In this document: positions 12,390 through 64,000 of the stretch, one piece after another
How positions within the stretch are numbered: position 1 is the first letter of the stretch
How the letters are laid out: each line of letters begins with the position of its first letter
Origin: an uncultured Acidobacteriota bacterium
GTDB lineage: Bacteria > Acidobacteriota > Vicinamibacteria > Vicinamibacterales > JAKQTR01
Length of the DNA: 64,000 nucleotides
Direction: 5' to 3'
Assembly (NCBI GenBank): GCA_963700065.1
Contig: CAVOWJ010000007.1
Location: 786,637-850,636 of the forward strand
Translations under genes and position numbers: made by a program
Notes under the pieces: generated by a model
What the model saw: the letters and a program-made list of their open reading frames with translations, nothing else
What the model was told of the DNA's origin: nothing
The model's database searches: none

Positions 12390-12400
12390 CTCAGTCTCCC

Positions 12401-12456: not shown

Positions 12457-12540
12457 GACCCGAGGGTTCCCCGGAAAGACCAAGGGCCGCCCGCGCCATG
12501 CGGACGGCCCCGGGGACCGCCGAGCGGCGCCCCTCCCGCG

Positions 12541-14025
12541 TCAGGGCGCCTTGCGCTTACCGTCCGCGTCGTAGATTTCCACGGTCCCGAACTGCTTGAG
12601 CCCGCCGCCAATCTTCTGGCCATCGCCAACGGCCACGATCTGCAGCCTCGCGGGATCGAGGTACTTCACGGCGGCCGCCTGGACCTGCTCCCTGGTGATC
12701 GCCATCAGCCGCTCCGGGTACCTGTCCCAGTAGTCGGCCGGCAGGTTGAATCGCCGTGACGTGACGTAGTTGGCAAGAATGGCCGAGGGCGTCTCGAGCG
12801 ACAGCGCAAAGCTCGCCACCAGCGACCGCTTCTTGTCCATGAACTCGTTGTCGGGAACCGGCTCGGTGCGGATTCGCTTCACCTCGCCCAGGATTTCGCC
12901 GACGGCCTTGTCGGTCACGTCTCCCTTGACCTCGGTTTGCGCCGACCAGTCGCCGCGGTAGCGGGGCGCGTTGAGGCCGCTGTACGCCCCGTACGTCCAC
13001 CCCTTCTCCTCGCGGAGGTTGAGGAACAGCCGCCCGGTCGGGCCGCCGCCGATGATCGCGTTGACCAGCGTCATCACCTCGTAGTCCGGGCTGTTCCTGT
13101 TGATCGCCTGCGTCCCGACGACCAGGCTGGTCTGAACGGAACTGGGCCGATCGACGAGCAACACCTTGCCGGCGCCGGCGGGCGCCGGGTCCGGCGCGGG
13201 CGCCACGGCGGCGCCGGCCTTCTTCCAGCCGCCGAACCGCGCCTCGACTTTCTTGCGCGCCTCGGCCAGCGTGATGTCGCCGACGATGGCCACGATCGTC
13301 TGGTCGGGCGTGTACCGCGCCTTGTGAAACGCCACCAGCGCGTCGCGCGTGGCCCTGTCGATCGACTCGGCCGTGGCCATCACGCGACCGGCCGGGTGGT
13401 CGCCATACATCGCGCGGCCGTAGCGCTCGGCCGCCAGGAACTGGGGCATCGAGCGCACCTGCACCAGCTGTGCCTTCTGACGCGTCTTGTAGCGGGCCAG
13501 TTCGGCGTCGGGGAACGTCGGGGTCAGCACGATGTCGGCCGCCAGGTCGAGCGTCCGGTCGAGGTTGTCGGTGAGGCCGCTCGCCATGACCAGCGCGAAC
13601 TCGCTGGTCCCGCCGGTGCCCACCGACACGGTCGACGCCATCGCCTCGAGGTCCTGCGCGATCTGCTGCGAGGTGCGCGCGGCCGTGCCCTCGCTCATCA
13701 TCGCGGCGGTGAACGCGGCGAGGCCGGGCGCGTCGGCCGGATCGAACAGCCCTCCGGCGCCCGAGATGATCATCTGCACCGAGACCTGCGGGGCGCGATG
13801 ATCCTCGATCACCATCATGTGTATGCCGTTGGGGAGGTCCGCCTCCTGCGGGCGCGGCAGTTTCACCTTCAGGATGTCGTTCGACACCGGCGCCTTCCCC
13901 TTCTGGACCACCCCTTTGGTCGGCGAGGCCTGGCCGGGCGGCACCTGCGCGGCCGAGAGGACAAGCGGCAGCGCGCCCAGCGCGGCGATCGCGGCGGCGG
14001 CGGCAAGCGTTCTGGCGGCGTTCAT
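12541..14025 (-). CDS. M16 family peptidase-like protein, non-catalytic partner (no HxxEH)
   Basis: Only the C-terminal 494 aa of ORF 12541..15333 read sensibly, starting MNAARTLAAAAAIAALGAL (signal peptide). ATG 14025 overlaps the upstream stop (ATGA). The position equivalent to HxxEH reads GLAAFTAAMMSEGT. Confidence 0.85.
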   Translation of the reverse strand: MNAARTLAAAAAIAALGALPLVLSAAQVPPGQASPTKGVVQKGKAPVSNDILKVKLPRPQEADLPNGIHMMVIEDHRAPQVSVQMIISGAGGLFDPADAPGLAAFTAAMMSEGTAARTSQQIAQDLEAMASTVSVGTGGTSEFALVMASGLTDNLDRTLDLAADIVLTPTFPDAELARYKTRQKAQLVQVRSMPQFLAAERYGRAMYGDHPAGRVMATAESIDRATRDALVAFHKARYTPDQTIVAIVGDITLAEARKKVEARFGGWKKAGAAVAPAPDPAPAGAGKVLLVDRPSSVQTSLVVGTQAINRNSPDYEVMTLVNAIIGGGPTGRLFLNLREEKGWTYGAYSGLNAPRYRGDWSAQTEVKGDVTDKAVGEILGEVKRIRTEPVPDNEFMDKKRSLVASFALSLETPSAILANYVTSRRFNLPADYWDRYPERLMAITREQVQAAAVKYLDPARLQIVAVGDGQKIGGGLKQFGTVEIYDADGKRKAP

Positions 14026-15392
14026 CGCAGGCCTCCCTTCGCGGCGCCGGCCGCCGGCGCCTTCGGATTGGTGATCACGACGGTCCGGCTCCGCGGCCCG
14101 AAGTACCGGTTCGCGACGCGCTGGACGTCGGCCGCGGTGACCGCCGACAGCCGCTCGTACCTCGTGTTGATCAGATTGGGATCGTCGTAGTACACCGCGA
14201 GCTGCGAGAGCATCACCGCCCGCGACATCGAGCTGGTGAGGCTGCCGACGAAACCGCGCTTCGCGATGTTGCGCGCCTTCTCGATCTCCCACGCCTCGAT
14301 CGGGCCGGCCTTGAGGCGCTCGATCTCGGCGTAGATCGCCTGCTCGAGGTCGGCGATCGCCTTGCCGGGGTTCGCCATCCCGCCGAGGCGGAACAGCCCG
14401 GGCCCGCGGCTCTCGCCCGCCGACGCCATCACGCTCGACGACAGCTGCTTCTGGCGGACGACGTTCTCGTAGAGGCGGGAGCTGCGCCCGCTCGAGAGGA
14501 TCGTGGCGGCCACCGACAGCGCGTCGGCATCGGGCGTCATCGACGGCGGGATGGGGTACACGACGTCGACGCGCGGGAGCTTGGCGAGCGGGTCGTCGAT
14601 CGTCGCGCGCCGCTCCTCCGTCTGGGGCGGTTCGGTGATGTCGACGGGGGGCGGATCGGGCTGCCGGGGGATCGACTCGAAGTACTGGCGGACCTTCGCC
14701 AGGCAGTCGGCCGTCCTGACGTCGCCCGCGATGGCCAGCACCGCGTTGTTCGGCGCGTAATACATCTTGAAGAACGCCGCCACATCGTCGACCGTCGCCG
14801 CGCGCAGGTCGTCGATCGAGCCGATCACCGAGTGGCGGTACGCGGGGTTCCTGTAGGCCAGGTCCTCGAGGACCTCGGAGGTCCTGCCGTAGGGCTGGTT
14901 GTCGACGCCCTGGCGGCGTTCCTCCGACACGGTGGCGATCTGGTTGTCGAGGTTCTGCTTGTTGATGTCGAGGGCGCGCATGCGATCCGACTCGAGGAAC
15001 AGCGCCAGGTCGAGCTGATTGCTGGGCAGCCGCTCGAAGTAGTTGGTCCGCTCCTTGTTCGTCGTCCCGTTCATGTCGCCGCCGTTGTTGAAGACGAGCA
15101 GGAAGTGCTCGCCGCTGCCGACGTTCGGCGATCCCTTGAACATCATGTGCTCGAACAGGTGGGCGAAGCCGGTGCGGCCCGGCCGCTCGTTGCGCGAGCC
15201 GACGTTGTAGGTGACGGCAATCGAGAACACCGGGGCGAAGTGGTCCTCGGCGATGATCACGCGGAGGCCGTTCTTCAGGCGCGTGTCGGAGAACTGCACT
15301 TTCGGCGGGGCGGCCGCCAGCAGCGAGACGCACGCGGCCGCCGCCGTCGCGGCGCCCGTGAGCGCGAGTACGAGCTTCAGCCTGCTTCTCAT
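14022..15392 (-). CDS. M16 family zinc peptidase (insulinase/pitrilysin-like), catalytic subunit
   Basis: ORF track 456 aa. Signal peptide. Inverted zincin motif GFAHLFEHMMFKGS (HxxEH). SD AGGAGG upstream. Confidence 0.9.
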   Translation of the reverse strand: MRSRLKLVLALTGAATAAAACVSLLAAAPPKVQFSDTRLKNGLRVIIAEDHFAPVFSIAVTYNVGSRNERPGRTGFAHLFEHMMFKGSPNVGSGEHFLLVFNNGGDMNGTTNKERTNYFERLPSNQLDLALFLESDRMRALDINKQNLDNQIATVSEERRQGVDNQPYGRTSEVLEDLAYRNPAYRHSVIGSIDDLRAATVDDVAAFFKMYYAPNNAVLAIAGDVRTADCLAKVRQYFESIPRQPDPPPVDITEPPQTEERRATIDDPLAKLPRVDVVYPIPPSMTPDADALSVAATILSSGRSSRLYENVVRQKQLSSSVMASAGESRGPGLFRLGGMANPGKAIADLEQAIYAEIERLKAGPIEAWEIEKARNIAKRGFVGSLTSSMSRAVMLSQLAVYYDDPNLINTRYERLSAVTAADVQRVANRYFGPRSRTVVITNPKAPAAGAAKGGLR

Positions 15393-15406
15393 CAGTTCCT
15401 CCTGCA

Positions 15407-15461
15407 GGGGTCGGGTCTATTTACGTGCGCGACGCTCGACGAGCAACGGTATTGTAATCGC
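15407..15461 (-). promoter_or_regulatory. conserved ~55-nt upstream/leader element, copy B (14 nt upstream of the M16 operon start)
   Basis: Minus-strand read: GCGATTACAATACCGTTGCTCGTCGAGCGTCGCGCACGTAAATAGACCCGACCCC. Confidence 0.5.
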
Positions 15462-15551
15462 ACGGCCGGCCGGGCGACGGTCCGAGCGTATAATTCCGCC
15501 ACGCCCGCCGGACTTGTGCCCTCCGGCCGCGCTCTCAAACCTGGTGACGCC

Positions 15552-17010
15552 ATGCCCAACGCCTGCACGCCACGCCTCGTCTTTCTCGCTGCCTTGATCG
15601 CGCTGGTGCCGCTCGCCTCCGCCGGGCCGCTGGCCCAGGCGCCGCAGCCGGCCTCGCAGGCCCCGGCCGCGCGGGCCCAGGCGGCGGACCAGAAGCCCGC
15701 GCTCAACTGGCAGATGTCGCGCTCGGGCGATATCAACCGCATCCTGCCGCTGCGCGACCGCGCCCGCGTGCAGAACGAGATCCTCGAGTGGCGGCTCGAC
15801 AACGTTCTGCCCGCCATCATGCGCCGCGAAGGCCTCGAGCTGTGGCTCGTCGTCAACTTCGAGTACCGACGAGGACCCCGTCTACATGTCGCTGGTCGCG
15901 CAGCCGATGTTCTCGGCGCGGCGGCTCTCGATCCTCCTCTTCCACGACAGCAAGGACGGGTTCCGCAAGCTCACCGCCAACTGGCACGGCACGTCGACGT
16001 CGGGGCCGATGTACACGAACATCTTCACCGACCGGTCGAAGGGGGCCAACCACCAGTTCACCGTCGTCGCCGACTACATCCGGCAGCACGATCCGAAGAC
16101 GATCGGCATCAACTACGCGCCGCACTTCGACTACCACGACGAGTTCGCGCACGGCAACGGCCTCTCGGCCTTCCACAAGGCGAAGCTCGAGCAGGCCCTC
16201 GACAGGAAGTACGTCGATCGCCTCGTCTCGGCCGAGAAGGTGGCGATCGGCTGGTACGAGACGCGCAGCCCGCGCGAGCTGAGCCTCTACCGCCACCTCG
16301 CGGGCATCGGGCACGATCTCATCGCCGAGTTCTTCTCGAACCGCGCGATCACGCCCGACGTGACGACGGCCGACGACGTGGAGTGGTGGATCCGGCAGCG
16401 CATCACCACGCTGGGCCTCGACACGTGGTTCCACCCGTCGATCGACATCAAGCGGTCGCCGGCCGACCGCAAGCGCTACGGCGAGCGCGACACCGTCATC
16501 CGCCGCGGCGATCTGCTGCACTGCGACGTGGGCATCTCCTACCTGGGCTTGACGACCGACATGCAGCACAACGCCTACGTGCTGCGCCTGGGCGAGACCG
16601 AGGCGCCGGCCGGCCTGCGCGAACTGCTGCGCAAGGGCATCCGGCTCCAGGAGATTCACCTGGCGGAGATGCGCGAGGGCCGGACCGGCAACGACATCCT
16701 GCGCGCGATCCTCCAGCGCGGCCGCGCGGAAGGCCTGCTGCCGACCGTCTACACGCACCCCATCGGCCCGTACGGCCACGGGTCGGGCACCATGATCGGC
16801 ATGCCGGACAAGCAGGAGTCCGTGCCCGGCACGGGCGAGCACCCGCTTCACGCCGACACGGTCTACTCGATCGAGTTCTCGGTGGCGGCCGACATCCCGG
16901 AATGGGACAACGTCGAAGTGTCCACGGGCTTCGAAGACGAAGCCGTCTTCACTGGCGGCGCCGCGCGCTGGGTGGACGGCTACCCGCGGGCACTGTACCT
17001 GATCAGGTAG
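15552..17010 (+). CDS. secreted M24 family metallopeptidase (Xaa-Pro aminopeptidase/creatinase-like); frame disruption near 15868
   Basis: N-terminus MPNACTPRLVFLAALIALVPLASAG... lies in the frame of ORF 14832..17024 up to WLVVNFEY. It then continues DEDPVYMSLVAQ... in ORF 15886..17010. The C-terminal pita-bread-like region contains LLHCDVGISY, THPIGPYGHGSG and YSIEFSV. Confidence 0.75.
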
Positions 17011-49042: not shown

Positions 49043-49393
49043 CGTGAGCGAAGGCGGGCACGTCGGGCATACGTTTGCCGTGCACCGCGCCGAGCGTCCA
49101 AGTCTCAACAACACTGCCCGGAGCCCTGCCGGGAACGTAGGTATTCTTGGATGTTGGAATTGCGCGCGGCCGGCGATTCGACTCAGGAATGAGGGGGGTG
49201 AGCTGGGCGGAGCCAATTGTGGCGATGAGTCTGGTCCACGACGCTGCGTGCGTCCCGAGAACGCTGCCTGACGTCTGGAACCAGCCCCGGTCAGATGAAC
49301 TGCAGTGAGACCTGCGCTGTTCTGGCAGTGCCCGCAATCAGGAGATACCAGCCAAACCCCTGGCCGACTCGGCGTCAGGCGTTTAGTTCCGAC

Positions 49394-49936
49394 CTATCGC
49401 CCCCCAACCGGGCCCGGGAACGGCACCACATACCGCACCCGCCGGAGGAAGGCGCTGTCGATGTCTTCCCGACGATTGGTGGATAGGATGACTATGCCCT
49501 CATGCGCTTCCAGCTTCTGCAGCAGATAGCCGATTTCGAGGTTGGCGTAGCGATCGTGACTGTCCTTCACCTCGGTGCGCGTGCCGAACAGCGCATCGGC
49601 CTCGTCGAAGAACAAAACGGCCCCGGTGCGTTCGGCCTCCTCGAAGAGCCGCGCCAGGTTCTTCTCCGTTTCGCCGATGTACTTGCTCACCACGAGGGAG
49701 AGGTCGACCCGGTGGAGCTCGAGGCGCAGCCGGAGTGCGAGCAGTTCAGCCGCCATCGTCTTGCCGGGGCCGCTCGGGCCGACGAACAGGACGAAGAGGC
49801 AAGCCGCGATGGTGCCATCGGCGGAGGCGCCCCGATCTGAGCGCCGGCTCGAACGCTCCCGCCACTCTGCCGCGATGTCGTTCAGTGACCGACGCTGGGG
49901 CTCAGGGATGCCGTCGGGATTGCCCATGCTGAACAC
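49394..49936 (-). pseudogene. truncated AAA+ ATPase, core only; paralogue of the eCIS ATPase at 60105..61448
   Basis: FVGPSGPGKT ... LSLVVSKYIGETEKNLARLFEEA ... VLFFDEADALFG ... DSHDRYAN is collinear with the ATPase core at 60105..61448. It lacks the long N-domain and the C-terminal lid. Confidence 0.6.
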
Positions 49937-50327
49937 CCTCCTGGCTCTGCGTCATCCCGCCGCCTCGCGGAACGCCTCGCAACAGGTAGTTGGCGCCAGT
50001 TTCCCGGTGGGCGACCGGTCGCATGGGCTGTCCGAGCATGGCGGTGGTCAACGACATTCTCGCCCCAGGTGACGTTGCCAACAAGTGCTTTCCCGGCGGG
50101 AGCTTCAGGGTGTCCTGGTGCGCATCGACTGCGGATTGCCGCCGGCAGCAGAAGTTGGGAATCGACGCGTTGGCCGGATGGAGCCAATCATCGGCGATGT
50201 GTCTGGCTCGAGACGTTGCGTGCGTCCCAAGAACGCCGCCTGGAGCGCGGGAGGCAGGGATCATACAATGCCGCCGCGCCCGCTCGCGCCGGGAGGCGTC
50301 GGCGGTCCGGTGCTCCCTGAGGTCAAC

Positions 50328-53866: not shown

Positions 53867-54514
53867 GGCTCGTTGTGACCGCTTGCCCGGCAGGCCGCGT
53901 TCGGCCGAGAAGCTGCGCGCGCGAGAATCAGCCGGGCTCGTGCGGAGTATACCGGGGGGTTGTGCCTGTCACAAGCGGCGCCGCGCGGCCGCGCTGGCGG
54001 ATTGCCAGGTACCGGAATTCGCGCGCCTGCATCGCGCGTGGCGACAAGAGGCATGCCAGTGAAGTCGCGGATTGCACACTGACTCGCGGAGCGGAAATTC
54101 ACTGTGCAGTCGCTTGAAAACACCGATCGCGCGCCGGATACTGTACTCGCTCTCCGAGGTCAACATGGGCATGCCGTGCTCGGCAGTTCGCGCGGGACGC
54201 GGCGTCGGCCGGTTCGGCGGCAGGCGCTCGCGGCGGCCGTTCAGGCCGGCAGTCCCGGCGCGCGCGGCAGCGGGCACGCGACGCCCTCGCCTCAGATCGT
54301 GTGCGGCACGCACAGGGCGGGAATCCGGGCATCGGCAGATGGCCTGACGGCGTTCCCGGCGCCGCCCTGCGTCCGACCCGCGGTCAGCCCGGCCAGCGCC
54401 GGGCGCCGCCCCGTCGGACTCGGCTGTCGAGGCCGGCCTCCCAATTCGCCCGGCGCCGGCGTCACCGTTCTGCAAAGCCCCAGCGGTCCGGCGCAGTCCC
54501 GGAAGGAGTGAGAC

Positions 54515-55582
54515 ATGCCACAGAAGCGCGCGCAAGGTTTGTTGGCGGCAATTCGCGCCAAGGGCTACGACTGGGCTGTTGACGAGGCCCAGCCCCTCGC
54601 CAGACTGAGCGTGAAGGAACAGCGTTCCTACCTCGGCCTGTCGGTCACCGAAGAGGAGATGAAAGCGACGGCCGCGGCGATCAAGGCGCAGACGGCGTTC
54701 GCGGCGCTCCAGGCGGTCACCGCCCCTGCGGCGATCGACTGGCGCAACAACGGCGGCAACTGGACGACGCCGGTGAAGGACCAGGCGAGCTGCGGGAGCT
54801 GCGTGGCGTTCGGCACCTGCGGCACCCTCGAGGCCCGGATCAAGATCGCGTGCAAGAGCGCGTCGATGATGCCCGACCTCTCCGAGGCGCACCTCTTCTA
54901 CTGCGGGTGCGGGAACTGCTGCAACAACGGGTGGAACTTCCCGCCGGCGCTCGACTTCTGCAAGAACACCGGCGTCGCGCAGGAGTCGGCGTTCCCGTAC
55001 ACGCCCGGGAACCAGCCCTGCAAGACCGGGCTGACGCCGTACATCAAGCTGACGGGCTGGTCGGCCGTCCTCGCCGTCACCGACCGCAAGAACGTGCTGG
55101 CGGCGAAGGGACCCATGGTGGCCGGCATGGCCGTCTACCAGGACTTCTTCGCCTACCGCGCGGGCGTCTACCGGCACGTCAGCGGCGGGCTGTCCGGCTA
55201 CCACGCCATCAGCGTCGTCGGCTACGACAATGCGCAGGAGTGCTGGATCTGCAAGAACAGCTGGGGCACGACCTGGGGCGACGGCGGCTGGTTCCGCATC
55301 GGCTACGGCCAGTGCGGCATCGATACCAGCTTCGCGTTCTACGACGTGAGCCTGGAGTGCCCGGACGGCGGTGACTGCCGGAAGTACATGCCGTACCTGG
55401 TGCGCGTGCTGCAGGCGGCCAGGACCAACCCGAGCCTGCGCGCGTGCCTGCGATACTACGTCTGCCGGCGGCTCCCGCGGCCGATCTGCAACCCGGGGTA
55501 TCTCAACGTGGTCCGCGCCGTGCTGGCCATCCTCAGGAAGTGCCCGCAGTACCGGCTCGCGTTCTGCAGAGGCCTGGAGTAG
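54515..55582 (+). CDS. papain-family (C1A) cysteine peptidase with Cys-rich C-terminal extension; no signal peptide seen
   Basis: SD GGAAGGAG. IDWRNNGGNWTTPVKDQASCGSCVAFG (Cys), GYHAISVVGYD (His), CKNSWGTTWGDGGWFRI (Asn/Trp). Confidence 0.9.
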   Translation: MPQKRAQGLLAAIRAKGYDWAVDEAQPLARLSVKEQRSYLGLSVTEEEMKATAAAIKAQTAFAALQAVTAPAAIDWRNNGGNWTTPVKDQASCGSCVAFGTCGTLEARIKIACKSASMMPDLSEAHLFYCGCGNCCNNGWNFPPALDFCKNTGVAQESAFPYTPGNQPCKTGLTPYIKLTGWSAVLAVTDRKNVLAAKGPMVAGMAVYQDFFAYRAGVYRHVSGGLSGYHAISVVGYDNAQECWICKNSWGTTWGDGGWFRIGYGQCGIDTSFAFYDVSLECPDGGDCRKYMPYLVRVLQAARTNPSLRACLRYYVCRRLPRPICNPGYLNVVRAVLAILRKCPQYRLAFCRGLE

Positions 55583-55629
55583 CCTTGAGCTGACGCGGCG
55601 GTTGAAACCCGAATGGGAAGGAGCCAGCC

Positions 55630-55942
55630 ATGTCCGATACGAGTGAGATCCTGCTGCTGGATCCGGCAGGAGAGTTCGGCGCACTCGAGTACCGGGGATT
55701 TCGAGGGCGGCGTCACCGCCTTCGCCGAGATTCCCGCGCTCGAGACCCTGGATGCTGACCTCAGCGCCGCCGTGGCGGCCGACGAGGGCGGAGAACTGGA
55801 GCAGGCCCTGGCCGAGAGCGAACTCAGCCCGGAGGAGGAACTGGCGTTCGCCGAGTTCGAGACGCCCGCGGCCACGGCGCTCGACGAGCTGGTCGCCGCC
55901 CTGCAGCGGCACCCGGGACTGAAGATCACGATCTCGTTCTGA
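55630..55942 (+). CDS. small acidic hypothetical protein; probable frame disruption near 55693
   Basis: ATG 55630 gives MSDTSEILLLDPAGEFGALEY. The sensible continuation GDFEGGVTAFAEIPALETLDADLS...LKITISF lies in ORF 55613..55942. Confidence 0.35.
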
Positions 55943-55987
55943 ACCTGTCGCCCGCCCGGTCCGGGGGCCGGGCGGGCGCTGCTCCGA

Positions 55988-56335
55988 TTGCCCCCGGAGC
56001 CGCGAGGTGCGGTCGCCGTGCCCACTCCCATCGACAAACCCGTGACGGCCGCGGCCGGGACGCAGTTCACGATCGAACTCGAGTCCAACCCGACGACCGG
56101 CTACGAATGGCAACCCGTGTTCAGCCCCGAGAAGGTCCGGCTGGTCCGCCGCCAACTGTTGCGCGGCGGACGGCAGGCGGACGGCGAGGGGCCCGCGTTC
56201 GGCGCCGGGGGCACCGCGCGGTTCGTGTTCGAGGCGCTCGCCGCGGGCACGACGACCATCCGGATGGCGCTCAAGCGGTCCTGGGAGCCGGCCGCCATCG
56301 TGGAGCGCAGCTATCGCGTCGTCGTCCGCCGCTGA
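55988..56335 (+). CDS. chagasin-family (I42) cysteine peptidase inhibitor
   Basis: The three chagasin loop motifs are present: NPTTGYEW, FGAGGT and KRSWE. The start is uncertain (TTG 55988 or GTG 56018). No signal peptide seen. Confidence 0.8.
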   Translation: MPPEPRGAVAVPTPIDKPVTAAAGTQFTIELESNPTTGYEWQPVFSPEKVRLVRRQLLRGGRQADGEGPAFGAGGTARFVFEALAAGTTTIRMALKRSWEPAAIVERSYRVVVRR

Positions 56336-56425
56336 CGATCCCCCGGCAGCGCCGGGGGCCTCCCGTGGCGGCTAGCCGCCAGGCGGTGAACCAATCGTCT
56401 CGCGCCAGCCACCCTCCGTGACCGG

Positions 56426-56980
56426 CTACCGAGTGAGCTGTGCCAGAATCCCCAGGTGTTCCCGCACCGCGACCCGGCGCAGGGTATCCGCGGTTCCCGG
56501 ACCGCCGAGCGCCAGCGCGGGCTCGAACGCGTAGCATTCGTCGCGCGTCGGCGGCCCGAGCCGGGCGACTGCTTCGCGATACAGGGACACGCGGAGGATC
56601 TTCTCCGCGATCTCCTTGTCGCACAGCAGCGTGAAGATGCGGTGGATCCGCTTTGTCACTTCACTGATGCTCCCCCCGTGCACATCCAGGCTGTAGACCG
56701 CGCCGTTGTGCCAGAAGTAGAGATGACCGAACGCGGTACGAAGGAAGACCAGCGGCTTCGTTGCCGTCACTTCGATCCAGTCTTCGAGGATGCCGTCGAA
56801 CTGGCGCGGATCGGTCAGCCAGAGCAGGCCGTTTCCGTACGAACACCAGCCCGCCTCGCGCCACTGGGCGATCAACTGCTCGGGTAGCGCGGCCTGAAAC
56901 GCCTCGTATGCGTCCTCGCCCGGTGTCTGGCATTCCGCCGGCGGTCCGTACCGCTGCTCGAAGTCCTGGAATTGCCCCAT
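56426..56980 (-). CDS. GAD-like + DUF1851 immunity protein (Tdi-type)
   Basis: ALPEQLIAQWREAGWCSYGNGLLWLTDPRQF is GAD-like. FLRTAFGHLYFW...DECYAFEPALALGGPG...HLGILAQL is DUF1851-like. It starts 27 nt after the toxin stop. Confidence 0.8.
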   Translation of the reverse strand: MGQFQDFEQRYGPPAECQTPGEDAYEAFQAALPEQLIAQWREAGWCSYGNGLLWLTDPRQFDGILEDWIEVTATKPLVFLRTAFGHLYFWHNGAVYSLDVHGGSISEVTKRIHRIFTLLCDKEIAEKILRVSLYREAVARLGPPTRDECYAFEPALALGGPGTADTLRRVAVREHLGILAQLTR

Positions 56981-57007
56981 CGCATTCTCCCCTTTCGCGA
57001 ACCGTTG

Positions 57008-60000
57008 TCACGGCGTGAAGCCCTTGGCTATCAGTGTGACGTTGATCCGTCGCTTCGGCTTGTCTTTTTCGTCCAGGGCATCGACGGCGCCCTGCAGCTT
57101 CGTGGCCCTGGTCTTCCACTGGGAACCGATGGAAGAGTTTATGTAGCGCGAACCGAGCTTGGCAATGACATTGAACCCGCCGGCGATGAGATCCGGTTCG
57201 TGCAGCGCGGCCAGGCGCTCCAGCTCGTCCTCGACTTCCTGCGCCGTCTTCTTTGGATGTCGAGCCGCCAGGTCCTTGCGATAGAGATCGCGTACTTCGT
57301 CCTGCGGAACGCCCGAGCCGCGGCCCTGATCGGCATAGGCGGCGCGGTTCTTCAGCCAGTCGGTAACGGAGATGGCGTTCAGGCCCGACGCCTGGCCATC
57401 GAGTTGGGCCTGGTAGGTGGCCAGCACGTACTTGTTCAGATTGCAGTCGAAGGGAATCGAGACCAGCTTCATCGGCTTCAGTGTGCTGGGCTCCGGCACA
57501 TCCTCGCCCGGCGCGGCAACCGGCGTCTTGGTCACCACCTTGATGCCCAGGTTGCGTTCCTTCTTGGGGCTGGCCGACGCCTCGACCCACCACGAGCCGC
57601 CGCGCTCGAACGCGCTGATCGACTTCAGCTGGTAGCGGACGCTGATGCCGGCGAGCGCCGGCTGCAGCAGCGCCTTGGTGAAGCGGTTGCCCAGCACTCT
57701 GGCGGAGGTGACCGCCGCGCCGAGCGCGAGATCGGTCCGCTTGCCGGGATCTTGCGGCACACCGGCCTGGAGCAGGAACTTGCCCAGCTTCTTCGCCAGG
57801 TTGACGATGAAGTTCACCAGCCAGTCCAGCGCCTTGTCGATCGGGGCGCGGATCTTCGCGATGACGCCCATGATCTTGCTGGCGACGTTGCCCAGGCCGG
57901 CGAAGCCGGCCAGGAAGCTGATCGCCAGCGACAGCAGCCCGGCGAGGATCGACTCGACCTTCGCCGCGGCGGCGCCGATGTTGCCGGCGGCGATCTGGAC
58001 AATCGAGCCGATGAAGGCGTTGACCACCTCGATGATCCTCGAGATCTTCTCCACGAAGACCATCACCGTGCCGTAGATCGAGATGATCGCCGAGATGAAG
58101 CCCGCGCCGGGGATGAACATGGCGATCAGCCTCGGGACTGCCTTCTTGACCACGGCATCCACCACCAGGTCGGTGATGCCGCCAATCACCATGTCCTTCA
58201 GATTGGCCAGCTGCTCCTTGATTCTGTCCCACGCCGCCGCCGGGCCCTTCGTCACCAGGGTGACGACGATGTCGAAGCCTTTCTCCATCGCCGAGACGAC
58301 GGTTTCGCTGGTCGCCTTCACCAGCTTCTGGCGGATGTTGGCCCACGTCAGGCCGAGCACCGAGAACGCGAACTTGGCGATCTCCGGCAGCGTGAGCGCC
58401 TTCGGGATGTAGATGCCCGGCAGCGACCCGGTGAGCCACTCGATCAGACCGGCCTTGAGATGCTGCAGGAAGCGGCCGGCGAAGCCGGTGAACCCGGCCT
58501 TGGCCGCGGCGACGAGATTGCCCACGAACGGGATCGGGTTCTTGAGAATGCTCTTCAGCGCGGCGCCGGTCCGCTGCACGTAGCCCCACGCGCCCGGGCT
58601 GACGACGTCGAAGACGATCTCCAGCAGCTTCCACGCGGTGTCGGCAGCCCACGAGATGAAGCGGCCGACGAAGTCGCCGAACACCTTGCCGACCTTCACG
58701 AACGCCAGCGGCAGCAGGATGATGTCGGCGAGTTCGAGCGACGTGAGCGCCTTGATGAAGAGCGCCGGGATCTCCCTGACGAACCCGCCCAGCTGCTCCA
58801 TCGCCGTCTGGAACCACGTCCAGGCGCGCGAGACGGCATTGGCCTCCTGCATCTTCGCCCACACGTCGCCCTGGCCGGCGAGCTTCATGAAGCCGCCGAT
58901 CACGGTATCGGGCGTGCGCGGGTACGACTCGCCGGTGACCGGGTCCTTCTTGAGCACCGCCTTGAGCAGGTCGTAGCCGGGCAGCCCCTGCGCCAGGCCG
59001 CCGAGGGGCCGGAGAATCGCGTCCTTGATCAGCTCGATGAAGCCGCTGGCGAGCCCCACGATGAAGGTTTTCGCCTGGTCGATGGGACCCGTGAAGAGCC
59101 TCTTGGCCCGTTCCCAGGTCTTGAACGGGCTGAGGAGGATGTCGTCGCCGCCGATGCTGTTGATGAAGCCGACGATCGCATCGCGAATCGCGCCGCCGAG
59201 CGACTTCAGGGTGGCGATCTGCGCCATGAACCAGGCCGCGGCCCTGTCGATGATGCCGTGGTTGTCCAGGGCGCGGACAATCAGCCCGCCGCCCGGGACG
59301 AGTTCGATCAGCGCGCGCAGCACGTTGGCCGGCGTGCGATCGGCCGCGCTCATGTTGATCGGGTTGACGCCAACGATGATCGTGAACAGCCGGAAGCCCG
59401 GGATGTCGTTGGCCTTGCCCGCCACCCAGTCCAGCCCCTCGCTGAGCCACGAGCCCTGGATCATCTCGGGCGTCGAGTGGGAGACCGTCACGTCCTCGCT
59501 GCGCTGCACCGCCGCACCCTGCTGAATCGTGTGCGTCAGCTCGTGGGCGATCAGCTCCTGGCCTTCGGCGGTCTCCGGCCTGAAGCGGTCCTTGCCGAAG
59601 AACACCTGGTTGCCGAACGCGAAGGCGCGCGCCCCCACCTGCCGGGTGAGCGCGGCCGCCTTGTCGCCGGTGTGGACGCGCACCTTGCCGAAGTCGGCAC
59701 GAAAGCGCGGCTCCATGAAGCGCTTCACGCGCTCCGGCAGGGGCCGGCCCGCCAGCTTCGCCGCCGCCAGCTCCGCCGCGAAACCGGGGCCTGCCTGCGC
59801 CGGCGCCGCGTCGGCCTTGCGTGCGACCGACCGCGCCGCGCGGCCGATCTGCAGGTGCGCGAACCGCGCGGTGTACGGCGATTCCCACGACCGAGCCACG
59901 GCCGCCTCGCGCGCGGCCATGCGCATCACCTTCCTGGCGGCCGATTCGGCCTCTTTCTCCTCGGGATCCGACGGCTTCGAAACGCGCACCGCGGCCGCCG

Positions 60001-60097
60001 CCTGCAGCCGCGGCGCAGCGGCGGCGCGCACCACCGGCGGCGTGGGCGCCGGCGCCCCGGTACGGCCGATGGATTTCTGCTGCAGCGCCGCGCCCAT
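57008..60097 (-). CDS. DUF4157 (eCIS-type zincin-like N-domain) polymorphic toxin with C-terminal Ntox15/toxin_43-like HxxD nuclease domain
   Basis: Preferred start MGAALQQKSIGRTG (ATG 60097, 7 nt after the ATPase stop). DUF4157 signature: PLPERVKRFMEPRFRADFGKVRVHTGDKAA...GARAFAFGNQVFFG...LIAHELTHTIQQ. Long hydrophobic-helical middle region. C-terminus reads LAALHEPDLIAGG (HxxD). Confidence 0.85.
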   Translation of the reverse strand: MGAALQQKSIGRTGAPAPTPPVVRAAAAPRLQAAAAVRVSKPSDPEEKEAESAARKVMRMAAREAAVARSWESPYTARFAHLQIGRAARSVARKADAAPAQAGPGFAAELAAAKLAGRPLPERVKRFMEPRFRADFGKVRVHTGDKAAALTRQVGARAFAFGNQVFFGKDRFRPETAEGQELIAHELTHTIQQGAAVQRSEDVTVSHSTPEMIQGSWLSEGLDWVAGKANDIPGFRLFTIIVGVNPINMSAADRTPANVLRALIELVPGGGLIVRALDNHGIIDRAAAWFMAQIATLKSLGGAIRDAIVGFINSIGGDDILLSPFKTWERAKRLFTGPIDQAKTFIVGLASGFIELIKDAILRPLGGLAQGLPGYDLLKAVLKKDPVTGESYPRTPDTVIGGFMKLAGQGDVWAKMQEANAVSRAWTWFQTAMEQLGGFVREIPALFIKALTSLELADIILLPLAFVKVGKVFGDFVGRFISWAADTAWKLLEIVFDVVSPGAWGYVQRTGAALKSILKNPIPFVGNLVAAAKAGFTGFAGRFLQHLKAGLIEWLTGSLPGIYIPKALTLPEIAKFAFSVLGLTWANIRQKLVKATSETVVSAMEKGFDIVVTLVTKGPAAAWDRIKEQLANLKDMVIGGITDLVVDAVVKKAVPRLIAMFIPGAGFISAIISIYGTVMVFVEKISRIIEVVNAFIGSIVQIAAGNIGAAAAKVESILAGLLSLAISFLAGFAGLGNVASKIMGVIAKIRAPIDKALDWLVNFIVNLAKKLGKFLLQAGVPQDPGKRTDLALGAAVTSARVLGNRFTKALLQPALAGISVRYQLKSISAFERGGSWWVEASASPKKERNLGIKVVTKTPVAAPGEDVPEPSTLKPMKLVSIPFDCNLNKYVLATYQAQLDGQASGLNAISVTDWLKNRAAYADQGRGSGVPQDEVRDLYRKDLAARHPKKTAQEVEDELERLAALHEPDLIAGGFNVIAKLGSRYINSSIGSQWKTRATKLQGAVDALDEKDKPKRRINVTLIAKGFTP

Positions 60098-60104
60098 GTC
60101 GTCC

Positions 60105-61448
60105 CTACGGCGCGCGGCCGTCCTTGAGGAACTCGCGGCGCACGCCGTCCTCGAGGTCATCGAGCGCGATGGCGGCGCCGCCGCGGCTGATCGCCATCAG
60201 CGACGCGTAGCGGACCACGTTCATGATCGTGCCGCCCGACAGCTCGTACCGCTCGGCGATGCGGCCGAGATCGATGCGGTCGTCGAGCGTCGCGTGCCGC
60301 GGGAACGCATCACGCCAGATGCGCAGGCGTTCGGGCGGCTTCGGCATGGGGAACTGCACGACCGACTGGAACCGTCGAACGAACGCGTCGTCGATGTTGG
60401 CGCGGAAGTTCGAGGCCAGGATGACGACGCCGTCGAACTCCTCGATGCGCTGCAGCAGGAAGCTGACCTCCTGGTTGGCGTACCGATCGTGGGAGTCCTC
60501 GACGCGCGTTCGCTTGCCAAAGAGCGCGTCCGCTTCGTCGAAGAACAGGATCCAGCCCTTGTGCTCGGCCGCGTCGAAGATCCGCGACAGGTTCTTCTCG
60601 GTCTCGCCGATGTACTTCGACACGATCAGGCTGAGATCGACCTTGTAGACGTCGCAGCCGCAGTGCTTGCCGACCAGGCACGCCGACAGCGTCTTGCCGG
60701 TGCCCGGGGGGCCGACGAACAGGCTGGTGAACCCCGGTGCCAGCTTCGCGCCCAGGCCCCAATCGCCGAGCAAGGTCCGCCCGTGCTGCACCCACTTGCG
60801 GATCTCGTCCAGCTCGGCGCGGGTCGCCGCCGGCAGCACCAGGTCGTCCCAGTCGAGCTCGGTGCGGATCAGGCGCGCCGGAAAGTCGCCGCGGAACCCG
60901 GGCTTGCGCAGCGCGCCGCTGGTGAAACGATGCAGGAAGTCGGTGCCAATCGTGAGCAGCCCGGCCAGCTGTGACTCGCCCGGGCCGACCGGCGCCAGGT
61001 GGACCACGTTGAGCCGGGCGAGGAACCCGTCGGCGGCGAACAGGCGCATGGTCTCGAAGCGCGCCGCGAGGTCGTCGCCGGCGAGCAGGAACGCGGCGGT
61101 CTCCCCGGTGGGCAGGAACCCGCCGTGGCTCGCGGCGTGCAGGCCGCCGAACTCCGCGAAGCCGCGCTGGGTGGTTTCGTTTCGCGTGCACAGCACGTCG
61201 AGCAGTTGCGGCCGGACGTGCGGGATGAGGGCCAGCAACACGATCAGCCGGACGCGCGGATCCACCTGGTGCTGGCCCAGGAAGCTCGCGTAGGGGGACG
61301 CTCCCTCCAGGGCCGGCGGCGGCAGGTAGGAATGGCCGTTGTCCGCCGCGCGGTCGAAGTACGCCTTGAGGCGCGCCTCGAGCACGGTGGCGAACCACTC
61401 GAGGTCCCGCTCGAGATCCCGCGCGTTGGCGATCAGCTCCGCGCCCAT
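60105..61448 (-). CDS. eCIS-associated AAA+ ATPase (Afp15/Pvc15-like)
   Basis: Only the C-terminal 447 aa of ORF 60105..62705 read sensibly (MGAELIANARDLERDLEWF...). Walker A GPPGTGKT, IVSKYIGETEKNL, Walker B ILFFDEADALFG, and ELSGGTIMNV. Confidence 0.85.
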   Translation of the reverse strand: MGAELIANARDLERDLEWFATVLEARLKAYFDRAADNGHSYLPPPALEGASPYASFLGQHQVDPRVRLIVLLALIPHVRPQLLDVLCTRNETTQRGFAEFGGLHAASHGGFLPTGETAAFLLAGDDLAARFETMRLFAADGFLARLNVVHLAPVGPGESQLAGLLTIGTDFLHRFTSGALRKPGFRGDFPARLIRTELDWDDLVLPAATRAELDEIRKWVQHGRTLLGDWGLGAKLAPGFTSLFVGPPGTGKTLSACLVGKHCGCDVYKVDLSLIVSKYIGETEKNLSRIFDAAEHKGWILFFDEADALFGKRTRVEDSHDRYANQEVSFLLQRIEEFDGVVILASNFRANIDDAFVRRFQSVVQFPMPKPPERLRIWRDAFPRHATLDDRIDLGRIAERYELSGGTIMNVVRYASLMAISRGGAAIALDDLEDGVRREFLKDGRAP

Positions 61449-62959
61449 TCCGTGAACAGCAGCGTGGTCATCCATGGCAGCTTGATGGGACCCAGGGCCC
61501 AGGGCAGGCGATCGATCAGCATGTCGAACGAATCCGGCTCCACGCGCAGGCGCCAGCCGCCGTCGATCGCGGTCAGCAGGCCCCGGCGCTGCAGGAACGA
61601 GCCGCGCAGGCCGGCGATCGAGGTGTGCTTCAGCGCCTGCCAGTGCTCGACCACCGACTCGAGCAGGGCGTCCACTTCGCCGCGCTCGGCAGCGCTCAGT
61701 GTCCCGGCCGGCGTGAGCACGACCGCTTCGGGACGCACGCCGAGCAGCACCTTGATCAACCCGAGTTCGAAGTCGAGCGGCTGGTCGTCGCCGAGGGCGG
61801 CGTAGGCCAGGAACGCCGCCGCGCGCGGCAACGATCCGGAATCGAGCGCGCGTGCGCCCTGAGGCGCGACTCCGAGGCGCTCGAACAGGCGAGGCAGGAA
61901 CGGATGGAGCAGGATGAGCCCGGCATGGTCCACGACGAGGCCGGGCAGGTCGTCGTCCTCGGCGACGTCGCCTGCCCGCGCTTCGAGGGGACCGGCCGGG
62001 GATACCTCTGGCGGTCGCACGGCCACGTCCGGCGGTGCGGGGCGCGAGGATGACGGCGGTGTGCCCGGCGATCCCGTGCGCGGGGCGGCTGGCCGCTCGG
62101 CCGCCAGGTCCATGAGCCGGGCCGCCGTCCACGCCGCAACTGGTGCGGGCAGGAGGGCCCGCGCAGACGCGAGTGCGGCGCCGGGCCCATTGGCCGCAAT
62201 CGGGGTCATCGGCGCAAAGAGCGAGGAGAGCTGCGACAGTGCGATTGGCACCGCACGTCGATCCAGATGCGCCACCGCCAGAATGGCCGCGGCCACTGTG
62301 CCCGGTGCCGCGCCCGCCAGGCGCGGGCCGGATCCCGCAGCGACGGCGGCGAGCGCCGCGAGCGGTTCGACGACATCCGGCGCCGGCGGCGGGCCGCCGA
62401 CCAGTCGGGCGATCGCCGTCCACTCCGCGGGCGGCGACACCTGCAGCCACCGGAACGCGTAGGCCACCGCAGCGTCGAGGGACGCAGGCATGTCCGTCGC
62501 CAGGCGGTCGCGATGCGCGAGGGCCAGGCTCATCACGTGGTCGCGTGTGGCGGTCCTGTCCAGGTTGGTGAGCGGCCACGGCAGGACGCCGGTGCGCAAA
62601 TAGTCGAGCAGCCCGTCGATGCCAGCCAGTGCGTGTTCCGCCGCCGGCCGCGATGCACGATCCTCGGCCGGCCCCGGCGGCGCCGCACGAGCCGGCGTGT
62701 CCCACACGTCCGGCCGGGCGAGCGCCTGCGCCAGCGCCGCGCCGATCCCGTCGATGTCAGGCACGATCACCGCCAGCTCGAGGCGCGGTAAATGAACGAC
62801 GGCATCGCCGGGGCCGGCGGCATCGAACGCGCGCTCGAACACGGCGAGCAGGTCCCGCTGGTGCAGCTGCCGCAGGCGCGCGCGTACCTCGAACGCCGCG
62901 TCGCGGGATCCGGCCCGGACGCGCCAGCGCAGGCGGCGGACGCGATGTGCAGCCGGCAT
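61433..62959 (-). CDS. contractile-injection-system tape-measure-like protein (Afp14-like position)
   Basis: ORF track 508 aa. The C-terminal block VVDHAGLILLHPFLPRLFERLGV...SIAGLRGSFLQRRGLL...IKLPWMTTLLFTEW matches what I recall of proteins annotated this way. It sits directly upstream of the ATPase. Confidence 0.55.
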   Translation of the reverse strand: MPAAHRVRRLRWRVRAGSRDAAFEVRARLRQLHQRDLLAVFERAFDAAGPGDAVVHLPRLELAVIVPDIDGIGAALAQALARPDVWDTPARAAPPGPAEDRASRPAAEHALAGIDGLLDYLRTGVLPWPLTNLDRTATRDHVMSLALAHRDRLATDMPASLDAAVAYAFRWLQVSPPAEWTAIARLVGGPPPAPDVVEPLAALAAVAAGSGPRLAGAAPGTVAAAILAVAHLDRRAVPIALSQLSSLFAPMTPIAANGPGAALASARALLPAPVAAWTAARLMDLAAERPAAPRTGSPGTPPSSSRPAPPDVAVRPPEVSPAGPLEARAGDVAEDDDLPGLVVDHAGLILLHPFLPRLFERLGVAPQGARALDSGSLPRAAAFLAYAALGDDQPLDFELGLIKVLLGVRPEAVVLTPAGTLSAAERGEVDALLESVVEHWQALKHTSIAGLRGSFLQRRGLLTAIDGGWRLRVEPDSFDMLIDRLPWALGPIKLPWMTTLLFTEWARS

Positions 62960-62968
62960 CCCCCGGGC

Positions 62969-64000
62969 CTAGAGCTGCAGCCCCCTGAGCAGGCCGCCGA
63001 TCATGTGCTTCATTTCCGGCCTGACGCTGGTCGGCGCCACGGTCTCTTTGAGCTTCGCCGCAACGGCGGCCGCCGCCCGGCCGCTCAGCGCGGACGTCGC
63101 CCCGGCCATCAGCGACACCGCTGCGGCGCCGTCGGTAGCGGCGTCCACGTTCGGTCCCGTGACGACGCGCCCGACCTCCGTGATCGCCTCGGCCAGTTCG
63201 GCCTCCTGCCGCAGGATTCCGGTCGCGATCTCCCTCTGCCTGGCCGGGTCGAGGGCCGGGTCGAGCAACAACTGACGCTGCTGCGCCAGACTCTGCGATC
63301 TGCCGAGCATTGATTCGACCGCCGCGCCGAGCTGCTTGTCGGTGAACGCCGGCGTCCGGGGACCCGCCTGCGAGGTCGGCATGGTGGTCTTCTTGAGGAT
63401 CTCCGTCGACTGCTGCAATGCCTTGAAGTAGGTCTCGGGGAACTTCAGCGTCGACTGCTTGAACGGCTCGAGCTCCAGCGACTTGAACTCGCCGAGGTCC
63501 ACCTTCCAACGCAGGTCCCATGGCTTGCGCACCTTCCAGGGCTTCTTCGGGATCGGCAGCGGGAGCGGCTTCGGCAGCGGCCGCGGCGCCGGCTCGGGCT
63601 CGGCGTCCTCCGGCCAGTGATACGGCAGCGTCACATCGCCGACCACCGTGCCGCCCTCGACGTAGATCAGGACGAAGGTGCCGCCGCGCGCCACGCCGCC
63701 GAGGTGCTCGGCCGCCGGATGGCGCGCGATGAAGCTCTTGAAGAGGAGCTTGTCGTCCTCATCGTCGTTCTTGTGGCCGATGATCGTGTCGAGCCACTCG
63801 GGCCAGACGGGCTTCCACGTCGTGTAGAGCGAATCGACGGGCCACCCAACCTCGGCCTTGGTGATGTCGCCCAGCGTCATGCGCATGCCGGCCGCTTGCT
63901 CGACGACGACGTCCGCGTTCTGCTTCCAGGACGTCGCGCGGTAGTCCGAGTACTTCATGTCCAGCCCGGCGACGGCGGCATCCGCCGACTTCGACACCTT
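62969..64000 (-). CDS. hypothetical eCIS-locus protein, C-terminal part only (continues past window end)
   Basis: The frame is open to the window end and has protein-like composition (DITKAEVGWPVDSLYTTWKPVWPEWLD...). The track start MSKS is an edge artefact. Confidence 0.55.
   Translation of the reverse strand, partial: KVSKSADAAVAGLDMKYSDYRATSWKQNADVVVEQAAGMRMTLGDITKAEVGWPVDSLYTTWKPVWPEWLDTIIGHKNDDEDDKLLFKSFIARHPAAEHLGGVARGGTFVLIYVEGGTVVGDVTLPYHWPEDAEPEPAPRPLPKPLPLPIPKKPWKVRKPWDLRWKVDLGEFKSLELEPFKQSTLKFPETYFKALQQSTEILKKTTMPTSQAGPRTPAFTDKQLGAAVESMLGRSQSLAQQRQLLLDPALDPARQREIATGILRQEAELAEAITEVGRVVTGPNVDAATDGAAAVSLMAGATSALSGRAAAAVAAKLKETVAPTSVRPEMKHMIGGLLRGLQL

Follow-up and report, generated by a model that had tools for sequence, protein, structure and literature searches.

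What does a run of genes belong to when the DNA in hand stops before the run does? The window analysed here, a 64,000-nt stretch of the genome of an uncultured acidobacterium (G000:C7:786637-850636), ends within a string of minus-strand genes that includes an AAA+ ATPase and a DUF4157 toxin, and an initial annotation took this string for the distal end of a contractile injection system (CIS) locus whose structural genes should lie beyond base 64000. The next 40 kb past that base were fetched and read. Window positions 56426 to 64000 (-) very probably represent the 3' third of a ~22.6-kb CIS operon of 18 to 19 genes, of the AlgoCIS/tCIS type (clade Ib-like), in a host of the class Vicinamibacteria, and the encoded system would load and expel a DUF4157-Ntox15 DNase that is paired with a Tdi1-type immunity protein. 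Genes outside the window are given in the coordinates of section L003 (G000:C7:850000-869999), to which 63363 is added to obtain the window coordinate; window positions beyond 64000 are extrapolated in this way. Real frames in the window, which has 70% G+C, were picked by third-position G+C (GC3).

Gene content and type of the operon

The core parts of a CIS are present in one tightly coupled string of genes on the same strand: a cap, one sheath, two tubes, a tube initiator, a VgrG spike, PAAR, gp25, Cis11, Cis12, an Alg19/Cis19-type fibre, a CIS tape measure, and an AAA+ ATPase. The operon ends with a DUF4157-led polymorphic toxin carrying an Ntox15 (HxxD) tip and with a Tdi1-type immunity gene. 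Neighbouring genes in it overlap by up to 16 nt or lie up to 108 nt apart (-16 to +108 nt). The minus-strand order first described for the window, namely, a large partial protein, tape measure, AAA+ ATPase, DUF4157 toxin, and immunity gene, holds for all genes and for both junctions then reported, which are exact (16-nt overlap of tape measure and ATPase at 61433-61448; 7-nt gap between ATPase and toxin at 60098-60104). The structural genes predicted past base 64000 were found on the same strand (sheath, tubes, initiator, spike, PAAR, gp25, Baseplate_J protein, gp7-like protein, and cap), and reading the last 4 kb of the window had foretold 15 kb of genes outside it. This is the sole CIS locus in the genome, as a genome-wide search revealed no second sheath, tube, or baseplate set.

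The last operon gene (56426-56980 [-]) encodes the immunity protein (184 amino acids [aa]; GAD-like and T6SS_Tdi1_C/DUF1851), and the gene before it encodes the 1,029-aa cargo toxin (57008-60097 [-]; eCIS_core/DUF4157 and Ntox15), with its start at ATG 60097 (MGAALQQ). The Cis15/Alg15-type AAA+ ATPase (60105-61448 [-]; 447 aa) consists of a ~230-aa N-terminal domain followed by one AAA+ module and lid (PF00004, E 3.6e-26, and AAA_lid_3), with Walker A GPPGTGKT and Walker B FFDEAD, and its PDB matches are confined to residues 232-431 (Cdc48/p97-type). ATPases at the same placement, 60 to 82% identical, occur in 80 related loci, and the ATG at 61448 is supported as the start because these homologues align from residues 1-8. 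The 508-aa Cis14/Afp14-type tape measure (61433-62959 [-]) matches PF19268 (CIS_TMP; E 2.5e-74) over profile positions 2-463 of 463.

The open reading frame (ORF) left open at the window edge (62969-64000 [-]; GC3, 0.93) comprises the C-terminal 343 codons of a 902-aa protein whose gene reaches L003 2314 (extrapolated window position 65677). This protein, "unknown" in the initial annotation, is identified by PDB comparison as an Alg19/Cis19-type baseplate fibre, or "crown." Its only PDB matches are 9wt0_a (E 5.5e-47 over residues 13-484), a PKD-domain protein from an entry that also holds Alg12, and 7b5h_AA (E 3.7e-29), which is All3314, the Cis19 of the Anabaena tCIS; both cover the first ~480 residues. 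All3314 forms the tCIS crown and has no homologue in the antifeeding prophage (Afp) (PMC8894136), and Alg19 is the AlgoCIS tail fibre, which points downward, has a TssK-like base, and is missing from Afp, from the Photorhabdus virulence cassettes (PVC), and from metamorphosis-associated contractile structures (PMC8894135). The fibre gave no Pfam match, and its C-terminal half gave no PKD/Ig match; the gene is kept upstream of the tape measure, at 34 to 43% identity, in ~30 loci.

The remaining genes follow on the minus strand of L003. Cis12 (2347-4881; gp7-like, 844 aa) was recognised by PDB matches and Cis11 (4878-7928; gp6-like, Baseplate_J, 1,016 aa) by Pfam and PDB, whereas Pfam identified gp25 (7931-8371), PAAR (8373-8675), a VgrG-like spike with Phage_GPD and Phage_base_V (8676-10313/10421), a tube initiator with CIS_tube and a Phage_tail_X/LysM-like end (10422-11090), and DUF5908 (11091-11261). 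Beyond these lie two gp19 tube genes (11262-11705 and 11712-12143; Phage_T4_gp19, E 1e-42 to 1e-45) and the sheath gene (12159-13758; Phage_sheath_1 and Phage_sheath_1C), which occupies two frames with a switch near 13238. The Pvc16_N/DUF4255 cap gene (14802-15369; PF14065, E 4.1e-20 and 5e-29) also occupies two frames, with a switch near 15085, and overlaps a small DUF3467-like ORF found by Pfam (15362-15637). The cap protein was read through its break once for the Pfam search, and the sheath was searched as separate pieces. Between cap and sheath, a 342-aa gene (13777-14805; extrapolated window positions 77140-78168) has no match in Pfam, PHROG, or PDB; loci of Vicinamibacterales, Sorangium, and Thermoanaerobaculia carry a 40%-identical gene in the corresponding place. 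The 342-aa gene is a conserved but unassigned component of this CIS lineage.

The locus is placed by match ranking and architecture, rather than by a formal sheath phylogeny, with AlgoCIS and tCIS (clade Ib in the terms of the published papers) and not with Afp/PVC. The ranking AlgoCIS > tCIS > Salmonella CIS > PVC/AFP was the same for three proteins: sheath (AlgoCIS, E 4.5e-105; tCIS, 1.6e-103; Pvc2, 2.6e-58), Cis11 (AlgoCIS, 1.6e-128; tCIS, 4.5e-108; Afp11, 1.3e-32), and Cis12 (Alg12, 6.9e-115; tCIS All3315, 6e-104; Salmonella SalCis12, 2e-32; Afp12, 1.4e-16, with Afp12 and Pvc12 at about 1e-16). The architecture argues for the same placement: one sheath gene without a genomic paralogue, a cap gene placed at the 5' end, an ATPase with one AAA+ module (232-431), and an Alg19/Cis19-type fibre all depart from the Afp/PVC type, and the cargo carries DUF4157. 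The initial annotation had proposed the Afp14-Afp15-toxin end of an Afp/PVC-type operon; its distal order of tape measure, ATPase, and toxin is retained, but the type is AlgoCIS/tCIS-like, with weaker matches to Afp/PVC.

An independent soil-metagenome contig (L099) is 94.5% identical in DNA over 13.7 kb and repeats seven gene lengths (1,016, 844, 902, 508, 447, 1,029, and 184 aa), which puts the gene set far beyond chance. Similarity to L099 stops at window position 56375, ~50 nt after the immunity gene, so that the operon's 3' end is the end of the shared module. Past this synteny break, L099 carries an rve_3 integrase and an OLD-TOPRIM/UvrD (Gabija-like) pair (L099 13723-23090), and in both genomes the CIS thus borders on a variable region, of defence or mobile type.

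RpoC identities (measured up to a frame break) of 86% to a Vicinamibacterales metagenome-assembled genome (MAG), 77% to Acidobacteriaceae, 74% to Thermoanaerobaculia, and 62 to 63% to Gemmatimonadota place the host among the acidobacteria of the class Vicinamibacteria. A tape-measure homologue (44% identical) was found in 1 of 40 sampled relatives, and equivalent loci with ATPases 48 to 82% identical occur in Myxococcota, Cyanobacteria, Burkholderiales, Gemmatimonadota, Bacteroidota, Desulfobulbus, Nitrospirota, Chloroflexota, and others, a distribution that is the usual patchy, horizontally spread pattern of extracellular CIS (eCIS). One survey catalogued such loci in 1,249 genomes (PMC8213781), and a later one listed 2,585 of them (PMC12923769). 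With surveys listing thousands, the present locus is a typical case of a family already well described, and what it contributes is a complete AlgoCIS-type system for Vicinamibacteria, which are abundant but barely cultured soil Acidobacteriota.

Three further observations concern the operon and its surroundings. Immediately upstream, in the same orientation, is a gene for a sigma-54 enhancer-binding protein (L003 15714-17843 [-]), and the 347-nt gap before the first ORF contains two GG-N10-GC-like sites (L003 15616-15647 [-]) with two mismatches each to TGGCAC-N5-TTGC. Sigma-54 control of the operon was nevertheless set aside as a weak lead, as such matches are no commoner than in shuffled sequence and three relatives do not have the activator adjacent to the operon. 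An Rfam search of window positions 54000-64000 gave no match. Lastly, 10 kb from the operon ATPase, window positions 49394-49926 (-) encode a 177-aa eCIS-type AAA+ fragment that is 60% identical to ATPase residues 243-369, lacks the N-terminal domain and lid, and lies between two 50-nt direct repeats sharing 84% identity (49221-49270 and 50193-50242). This fragment may be a remnant of another or earlier CIS locus.

The cargo toxin, its immunity gene and its helical core

The cargo begins with an Ala/Arg/Pro-rich N-terminus (residues 1-118), followed by DUF4157/eCIS_core with HELTH (119-195), an all-helical core (~205-775), a short beta unit with a variable linker, and Ntox15 (892-1022). Pfam matches were strong for both named domains (eCIS_core/DUF4157 [PF13699], E 1.1e-29; Ntox15, E 2.3e-24, at 86.6 bits versus a cut-off of 22.5 bits). 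The Ntox15 tip also matches Bacteroidales Tde1 (PDB 8fzz_A; E 1.8e-18), and alignment of ALHEPDLIAGG on ALHNPDQIAGG of this chain indicates that the HxxD motif is retained (HEPD). The immunity protein matches GAD-like and T6SS_Tdi1_C in Pfam (E 3.5e-20 and 1.9e-16) and the Tdi1 chains of Bacteroidales Tde1-Tdi1 complexes (8g0k_B, E 6.7e-11, and 8fzz_B). HxxD-dependent DNase activity and Tdi immunity are established for type VI secretion system (T6SS) effectors of Agrobacterium (Ma et al. 2014, PMC4096383) and Bacteroidales (PMC10470768). The C-terminal tip is a predicted Ntox15 DNase with a predicted Tdi1-type immunity protein, and the expectation of at least one nuclease cargo at this locus is borne out, at the level of prediction, by the DUF4157-Ntox15 protein with its HxxD motif.

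Toxin and immunity gene are closely spaced, with the GGGGAG ribosome-binding site of the latter 27 nt past the toxin stop. A sigma-70-like site (GTGACA-16-GAGAAT, 56984-57011 [-]) overlaps the toxin stop just upstream of the immunity gene and, judged by its match to the consensus, may be an internal promoter giving this gene independent expression. At 56500-59000, a segment that takes in the immunity gene together with the toxin gene's 3' two-thirds, the G+C content falls to 0.63 to 0.67, compared with 0.70 to 0.75 elsewhere in the operon, as would fit a toxin-immunity cassette exchanged more recently.

In at least 49 of the 80 related loci, the gene next after that of the ATPase encodes a DUF4157 protein. 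The layout of the cargo is that of a polymorphic toxin, since the C-terminal domain differs from locus to locus among 33 full-length homologues (Pfam Endonuclea_NS_2 in seven, Ntox15 in six, Ntox4 in one, and HHH in one, with the others unassigned). The combination of DUF4157, Ntox15, and Tdi is common, and in this respect the locus itself is unsurprising.

The part of the cargo between DUF4157 and the tip was described as a "very long linker" by Geller et al. (PMC8213781). Identities measured locus by locus to the present one instead place it among the most constrained parts of the system: they amount to 63 to 80% for the ATPase, 58 to 76% for DUF4157, 64 to 71% for the C-terminal part of the sheath, 50 to 63% in most loci for the helical core, 42 to 55% for Cis11, 37 to 52% for Cis12, 34 to 43% for the fibre, and 30 to 52%, at partial coverage, for the tape measure. 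Core conservation exceeds that of the baseplate proteins, fibre, and tape measure of the same loci and is second only to that of the ATPase and sheath, and the core keeps its 50 to 63% identity between phyla while the tip is swapped. A database search with the core only gave at least 2,190 protein clusters at E ≤ 1e-10; nearly all of the matches listed have DUF4157 and various tips, and they include Mesorhizobium Mlr6568, Nostoc proteins, and proteins of Actinobacteria MAGs. The core marks a large, unnamed domain family, one whose use as a general vehicle for engineered payloads could be put to the test.

Pfam contains no model for the core, and no match came from searching PDB sequences with a profile. 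Weak matches were obtained to phage tape-measure PHROGs over residues 271-768 (phrog_1535, E 3.4e-4; phrog_1272, E 3.9e-4), and one member of the core family weakly matches Tape_meas_lam_C (E 4e-4). Hydrophobic glycine-rich helices at 657-675 and 717-735 (hairpin 657-735) reach hydropathy peaks of 2.0 to 2.2. An AlphaFold2 model of the cargo, built from a 33-sequence alignment (pLDDT 66, pTM 0.31), is helical over residues 217-822 and falls below a pLDDT of 50 in residues 1-36 and 62-100. We tentatively propose, at somewhat less than even confidence, that the ~570-aa core could be a conserved delivery module derived from a tape measure, which would ride in the tube lumen, insert its glycine-rich hairpin in the target membrane, and carry the attached nuclease tip across.

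Mode of action and alternative readings

The gene set and its domain composition are observed directly; the mechanism we infer from studied relatives. In AlgoCIS, two DUF4157 cargos lie in the tube lumen, and their loading needs the disordered N-terminus but not DUF4157 and depends on the AAA+ protein Alg15, which probably acts by unfolding (PMC8894135, preprint 10.64898/2026.05.27.728243). Pvc15 has the same loading role in PVC (PMC11495950). By analogy, the 508-aa tape measure would set the length of the tube, and the 447-aa ATPase would recognise the disordered N-terminus of the cargo and thread the unfolded 1,029-aa toxin into the tube lumen, as Alg15 does for Cgo cargo and as Pvc15 does. 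The particle would bind its target through the Alg19-type fibres, and contraction of the sheath would drive spike and tube through the envelope and expel the cargo. The hydrophobic glycine-rich hairpin of the core could insert in the target membrane and help the DNase tip to reach the cytoplasm, where it would degrade DNA; this membrane-crossing step is drawn from hydropathy, conservation, and the precedent of glycine-zipper-dependent Tde1 translocation (PMC10240207).

In the producer and its kin, the immunity protein would neutralise the DNase. The presence of an immunity gene implies that the cytoplasm of producer-like cells is accessible to the toxin, which suggests that the target is bacterial. 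A bacterial-type DNase with an immunity gene fits the view of many environmental eCIS as inter-bacterial weapons rather than anti-animal devices (PMC8213781).

Several points weigh against a functional, released particle of this kind. That it is extracellular is an assumption, as clade Ib also holds cell-bound systems (T6SSiv and the thylakoid-anchored tCIS), and no lysis or release genes were identified, including beside the operon. The cargo model reaches no more than moderate confidence, and Foldseek found no similar fold for it in the PDB (nothing below E 0.7); the role proposed for the core is drawn from hydropathy, conservation, and tape-measure PHROG matches that are weak (E ~3e-4). In this assembly, one frameshift interrupts the sheath gene and another the cap gene, and no particle could form if these breaks were real.

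The alternative that survives best is a CIS that is not extracellular but acts inside or on the producer, in the manner of T6SSiv, the Anabaena tCIS, or the cytoplasmic Streptomyces CIS, with the DNase serving self-lysis, release of extracellular DNA, or contact-dependent killing. Cell-anchored tCIS is among the closest solved relatives, modes of action are mixed within clade Ib (PMC8894135), Tme, a DUF4157-nuclease effector of Streptomyces davawensis, acts on the DNA of its own producer (PMC11126660), and the operon has no lysis cassette next to it. We nevertheless consider this alternative unlikely, if worth keeping in view: the locus has neither a Cis13-like gene with a transmembrane helix nor the membrane-contact extension of tCIS Cis12, its Alg19-type downward fibre is that of the released AlgoCIS, and a cognate immunity gene fits the protection of kin from incoming toxin. 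In the absence of both tCIS membrane anchors (the Cis13 transmembrane helix and the Cis12 extension), the encoded system looks more like the released AlgoCIS.

Decay of the locus into a non-functional remnant is improbable. Two frame breaks within 22.6 kb, both in indispensable structural genes, are what such decay might leave, and the truncated eCIS ATPase copy 10 kb away shows past rearrangement. However, the sheath frame is continuous in five relatives and the cap frame in three of these, relatives at 88 to 94% DNA identity have unbroken frames, and two contigs that are 88 to 90% identical in DNA differ from this locus by a single base in length at the site of the sheath break. Every operon gene other than sheath and cap is full length, with a GC3 of 0.85 to 0.95. 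Frameshifts are, moreover, not peculiar to the operon. The essential rpoC gene (G000:C10:9105-13808 [-]) is also frameshifted, the assembly reaches only 87.5% marker completeness despite consisting of 15 contigs, and a scan of contig C7 with a GC3-periodicity hidden Markov model found at least 14 strict split-gene candidates in 1.04 Mb (for example, at C7 475839-479680 and C7 950196-952648). The strict count was used, the loose scan giving 60 candidates per Mb with false positives in Ala/Gly/Pro-rich segments (e.g., window positions 15598-17010). The five split genes that were inspected are ordinary ones, encoding a TonB-dependent receptor, an AMP-ligase, a GAF-PP2C phosphatase, a Ser/Thr kinase, and a repeat protein. 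Relatives and other split genes together indicate that the sheath and cap breaks are most likely indel errors of long-read assembly rather than decay of the locus, and single frameshifts are to be expected whenever ORFs are read in this genome. Programmed frameshifting in sheath or cap is ruled out by the continuous frames in relatives.

The switch of frame in the sheath gene lies ~15 codons past a Pro/Thr-rich insertion of ~70 aa (TATPTATPTPTVTATS units) in a sheath loop. This insertion is encoded by a tandem repeat of 48 nt in ~3 copies (L003 13309-13463; extrapolated window positions 76672-76826 [-]). The same site has 17 Pro/Ala-rich residues in a Vicinamibacterales relative and none in Sorangium, and two short-read contigs of close relatives end exactly at the repeat.

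The initial annotation also allowed for one protease cargo, and a gene for a papain-like C1 protease without signal peptide and with a Cys-rich C-terminal extension (54515-55582 [+]) does adjoin the operon's 3' end, together with a gene for a chagasin (I42) family inhibitor (55943-56335 [+]). The leaderless protease and its inhibitor resemble the logic of toxin and immunity protein, and at one other locus (L027) such a pair lies within 4 kb of the CIS ATPase. That this CIS delivers the two as a further effector with its immunity protein is, however, very improbable. The pair lies on the plus strand and converges on the operon, and the protease has neither DUF4157 nor an Ala/Pro-rich disordered N-terminus. 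The L027 pair is separated from the CIS by glgB and is only 22 to 24% identical. In the 94.5%-identical L099, the pair is absent, its place being taken by integrase and OLD/UvrD-type genes. The candidate was rejected on this synteny break and on the L027 context; the pair lies outside the block common to L099 and is, by this comparison, an independent module. The HExxH motif of DUF4157 is itself protease-like, yet it gives no support for a protease cargo, and it is dispensable for Cgo1 toxicity (PMC8894135).

A stand-alone module of ATPase and DUF4157 toxin, or a prophage tail or tailocin, might have been read from a window that ends before any structural gene and from tail-like Pfam families that are common to phages, but it retains next to no probability and is refuted by the structural genes beyond the window, with their contiguous CIS-specific markers (CIS_TMP, CIS_tube, Pvc16_N, DUF5908, eCIS_core, and AAA+ loader), by a sheath that matches CIS sheaths at 1e-105 versus T4 gp18 at 1e-6 and the pyocin sheath at 8e-5, by the absence of capsid/head, terminase, portal, and phage packaging or replication genes from the ~5 kb examined on each side of the tail module, and by operon flanks that consist of a sigma-54 activator, a beta-lactamase-fold gene, and the C1 protease with chagasin. 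Adjacent DNA free of contractile-tail genes had been named in advance as the observation that would speak for a stand-alone module, and the fetched sequence is the opposite of this.

Comparison with known systems

For the sheath, Cis11, Cis12, and the fibre, the best PDB match comes from AlgoCIS, the system found in Algoriphagus machipongonensis (clade Ib; Xu et al. 2022, PMC8894135; PDB 7adz, 7aeb, and 9wt0). It shares with the present locus one sheath gene, a large Cis11, and an Alg19-type downward fibre with a TssK-like N-terminal part; an association of DUF4157 with Alg19 has been noted before (PMC12210884). The cargo, like Cgo1 and Cgo2, consists of a disordered N-terminal domain, DUF4157, and a C-terminal domain, and in AlgoCIS such cargo is loaded into the tube lumen via an AAA+ protein. 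Differences lie in the host (Acidobacteriota versus Bacteroidota), in a C-terminal half of the fibre without a PKD/Ig match, in a sheath that bears a Pro/Thr-rich repeat insertion, and in the number of cargo genes (one versus two). The 570-aa helical core, a known type of DNase tip, and a cognate immunity gene have not been reported for Cgo1 or Cgo2.

The thylakoid-anchored tCIS of Anabaena sp. PCC 7120 (Weiss et al. 2022, PMC8894136; PDB 7b5h) is the second-best match for all four proteins. It has a Cis19 homologue, and in both systems Cis12 is followed directly by Cis19 and then by the distal genes. Unlike tCIS, the locus lacks a Cis13 with a transmembrane helix, and its Cis12 is 844 aa long, versus 1,335 aa, and matches only over residues 20-580, the membrane-contact extension being missing. 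A second cap protein was not identified at the locus, and the host has no thylakoids.

The Serratia Afp and Photorhabdus PVC (clade Ia; PDB 6rao and 6j0n) belong to the same superfamily and follow the same overall logic. They share the distal order of tape measure (Afp14), ATPase (Afp15), and toxins, and their cargo carries an N-terminal signal and is loaded by the ATPase (PMC11495950, PMC9054023). Matches to them are far weaker, however (1e-16 to 1e-58). The locus has one sheath gene rather than three (Afp2-4) and no Afp13-type fibre, and its cap gene lies at the 5' end of the operon, whereas that of Afp/PVC (Afp16) follows the ATPase. Its ATPase has one AAA+ module, in contrast to the D1 and D2 of Pvc15, and its cargo carries DUF4157, which PVC payloads lack.

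Two further comparisons concern the cargo. Like the Tde1-Tdi1 and Tde2-Tdi2 pairs, it combines Ntox15 with HxxD, in its C-terminal 130 aa, with an adjacent GAD-like/DUF1851 homologue of Tdi1. Tde proteins are delivered via a T6SS VgrG or adaptor, whereas the Ntox15 domain here is the tip of a 1,029-aa polymorphic toxin on a CIS-type carrier of DUF4157 and helical core.

The effector Tme (tape-measure-related effector) of the Streptomyces davawensis CIS (Nagakubo et al. 2024, PMC11126660) has an N-terminal DUF4157, predicted transmembrane helices, remote tape-measure similarity, and a C-terminal endonuclease. It is 2,247 aa long and ~70% disordered, and its gene is the largest ORF, upstream of the baseplate genes in the position of a tape measure. 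The cargo described here is also encoded by the longest gene of its operon, barely ahead of Cis11 (1,029 versus 1,016 aa). Unlike Tme, however, it consists mostly of ordered helices and is encoded after the ATPase at the 3' end of an operon that has a separate CIS_TMP; its nuclease is Ntox15 rather than EndA-like, and its tape-measure similarity is weak (E ~3e-4). What it has in common with Tme is an N-terminal DUF4157, membrane helices predicted by hydropathy alone, a C-terminal nuclease domain, and membership in a family that spans phyla with exchangeable tips.

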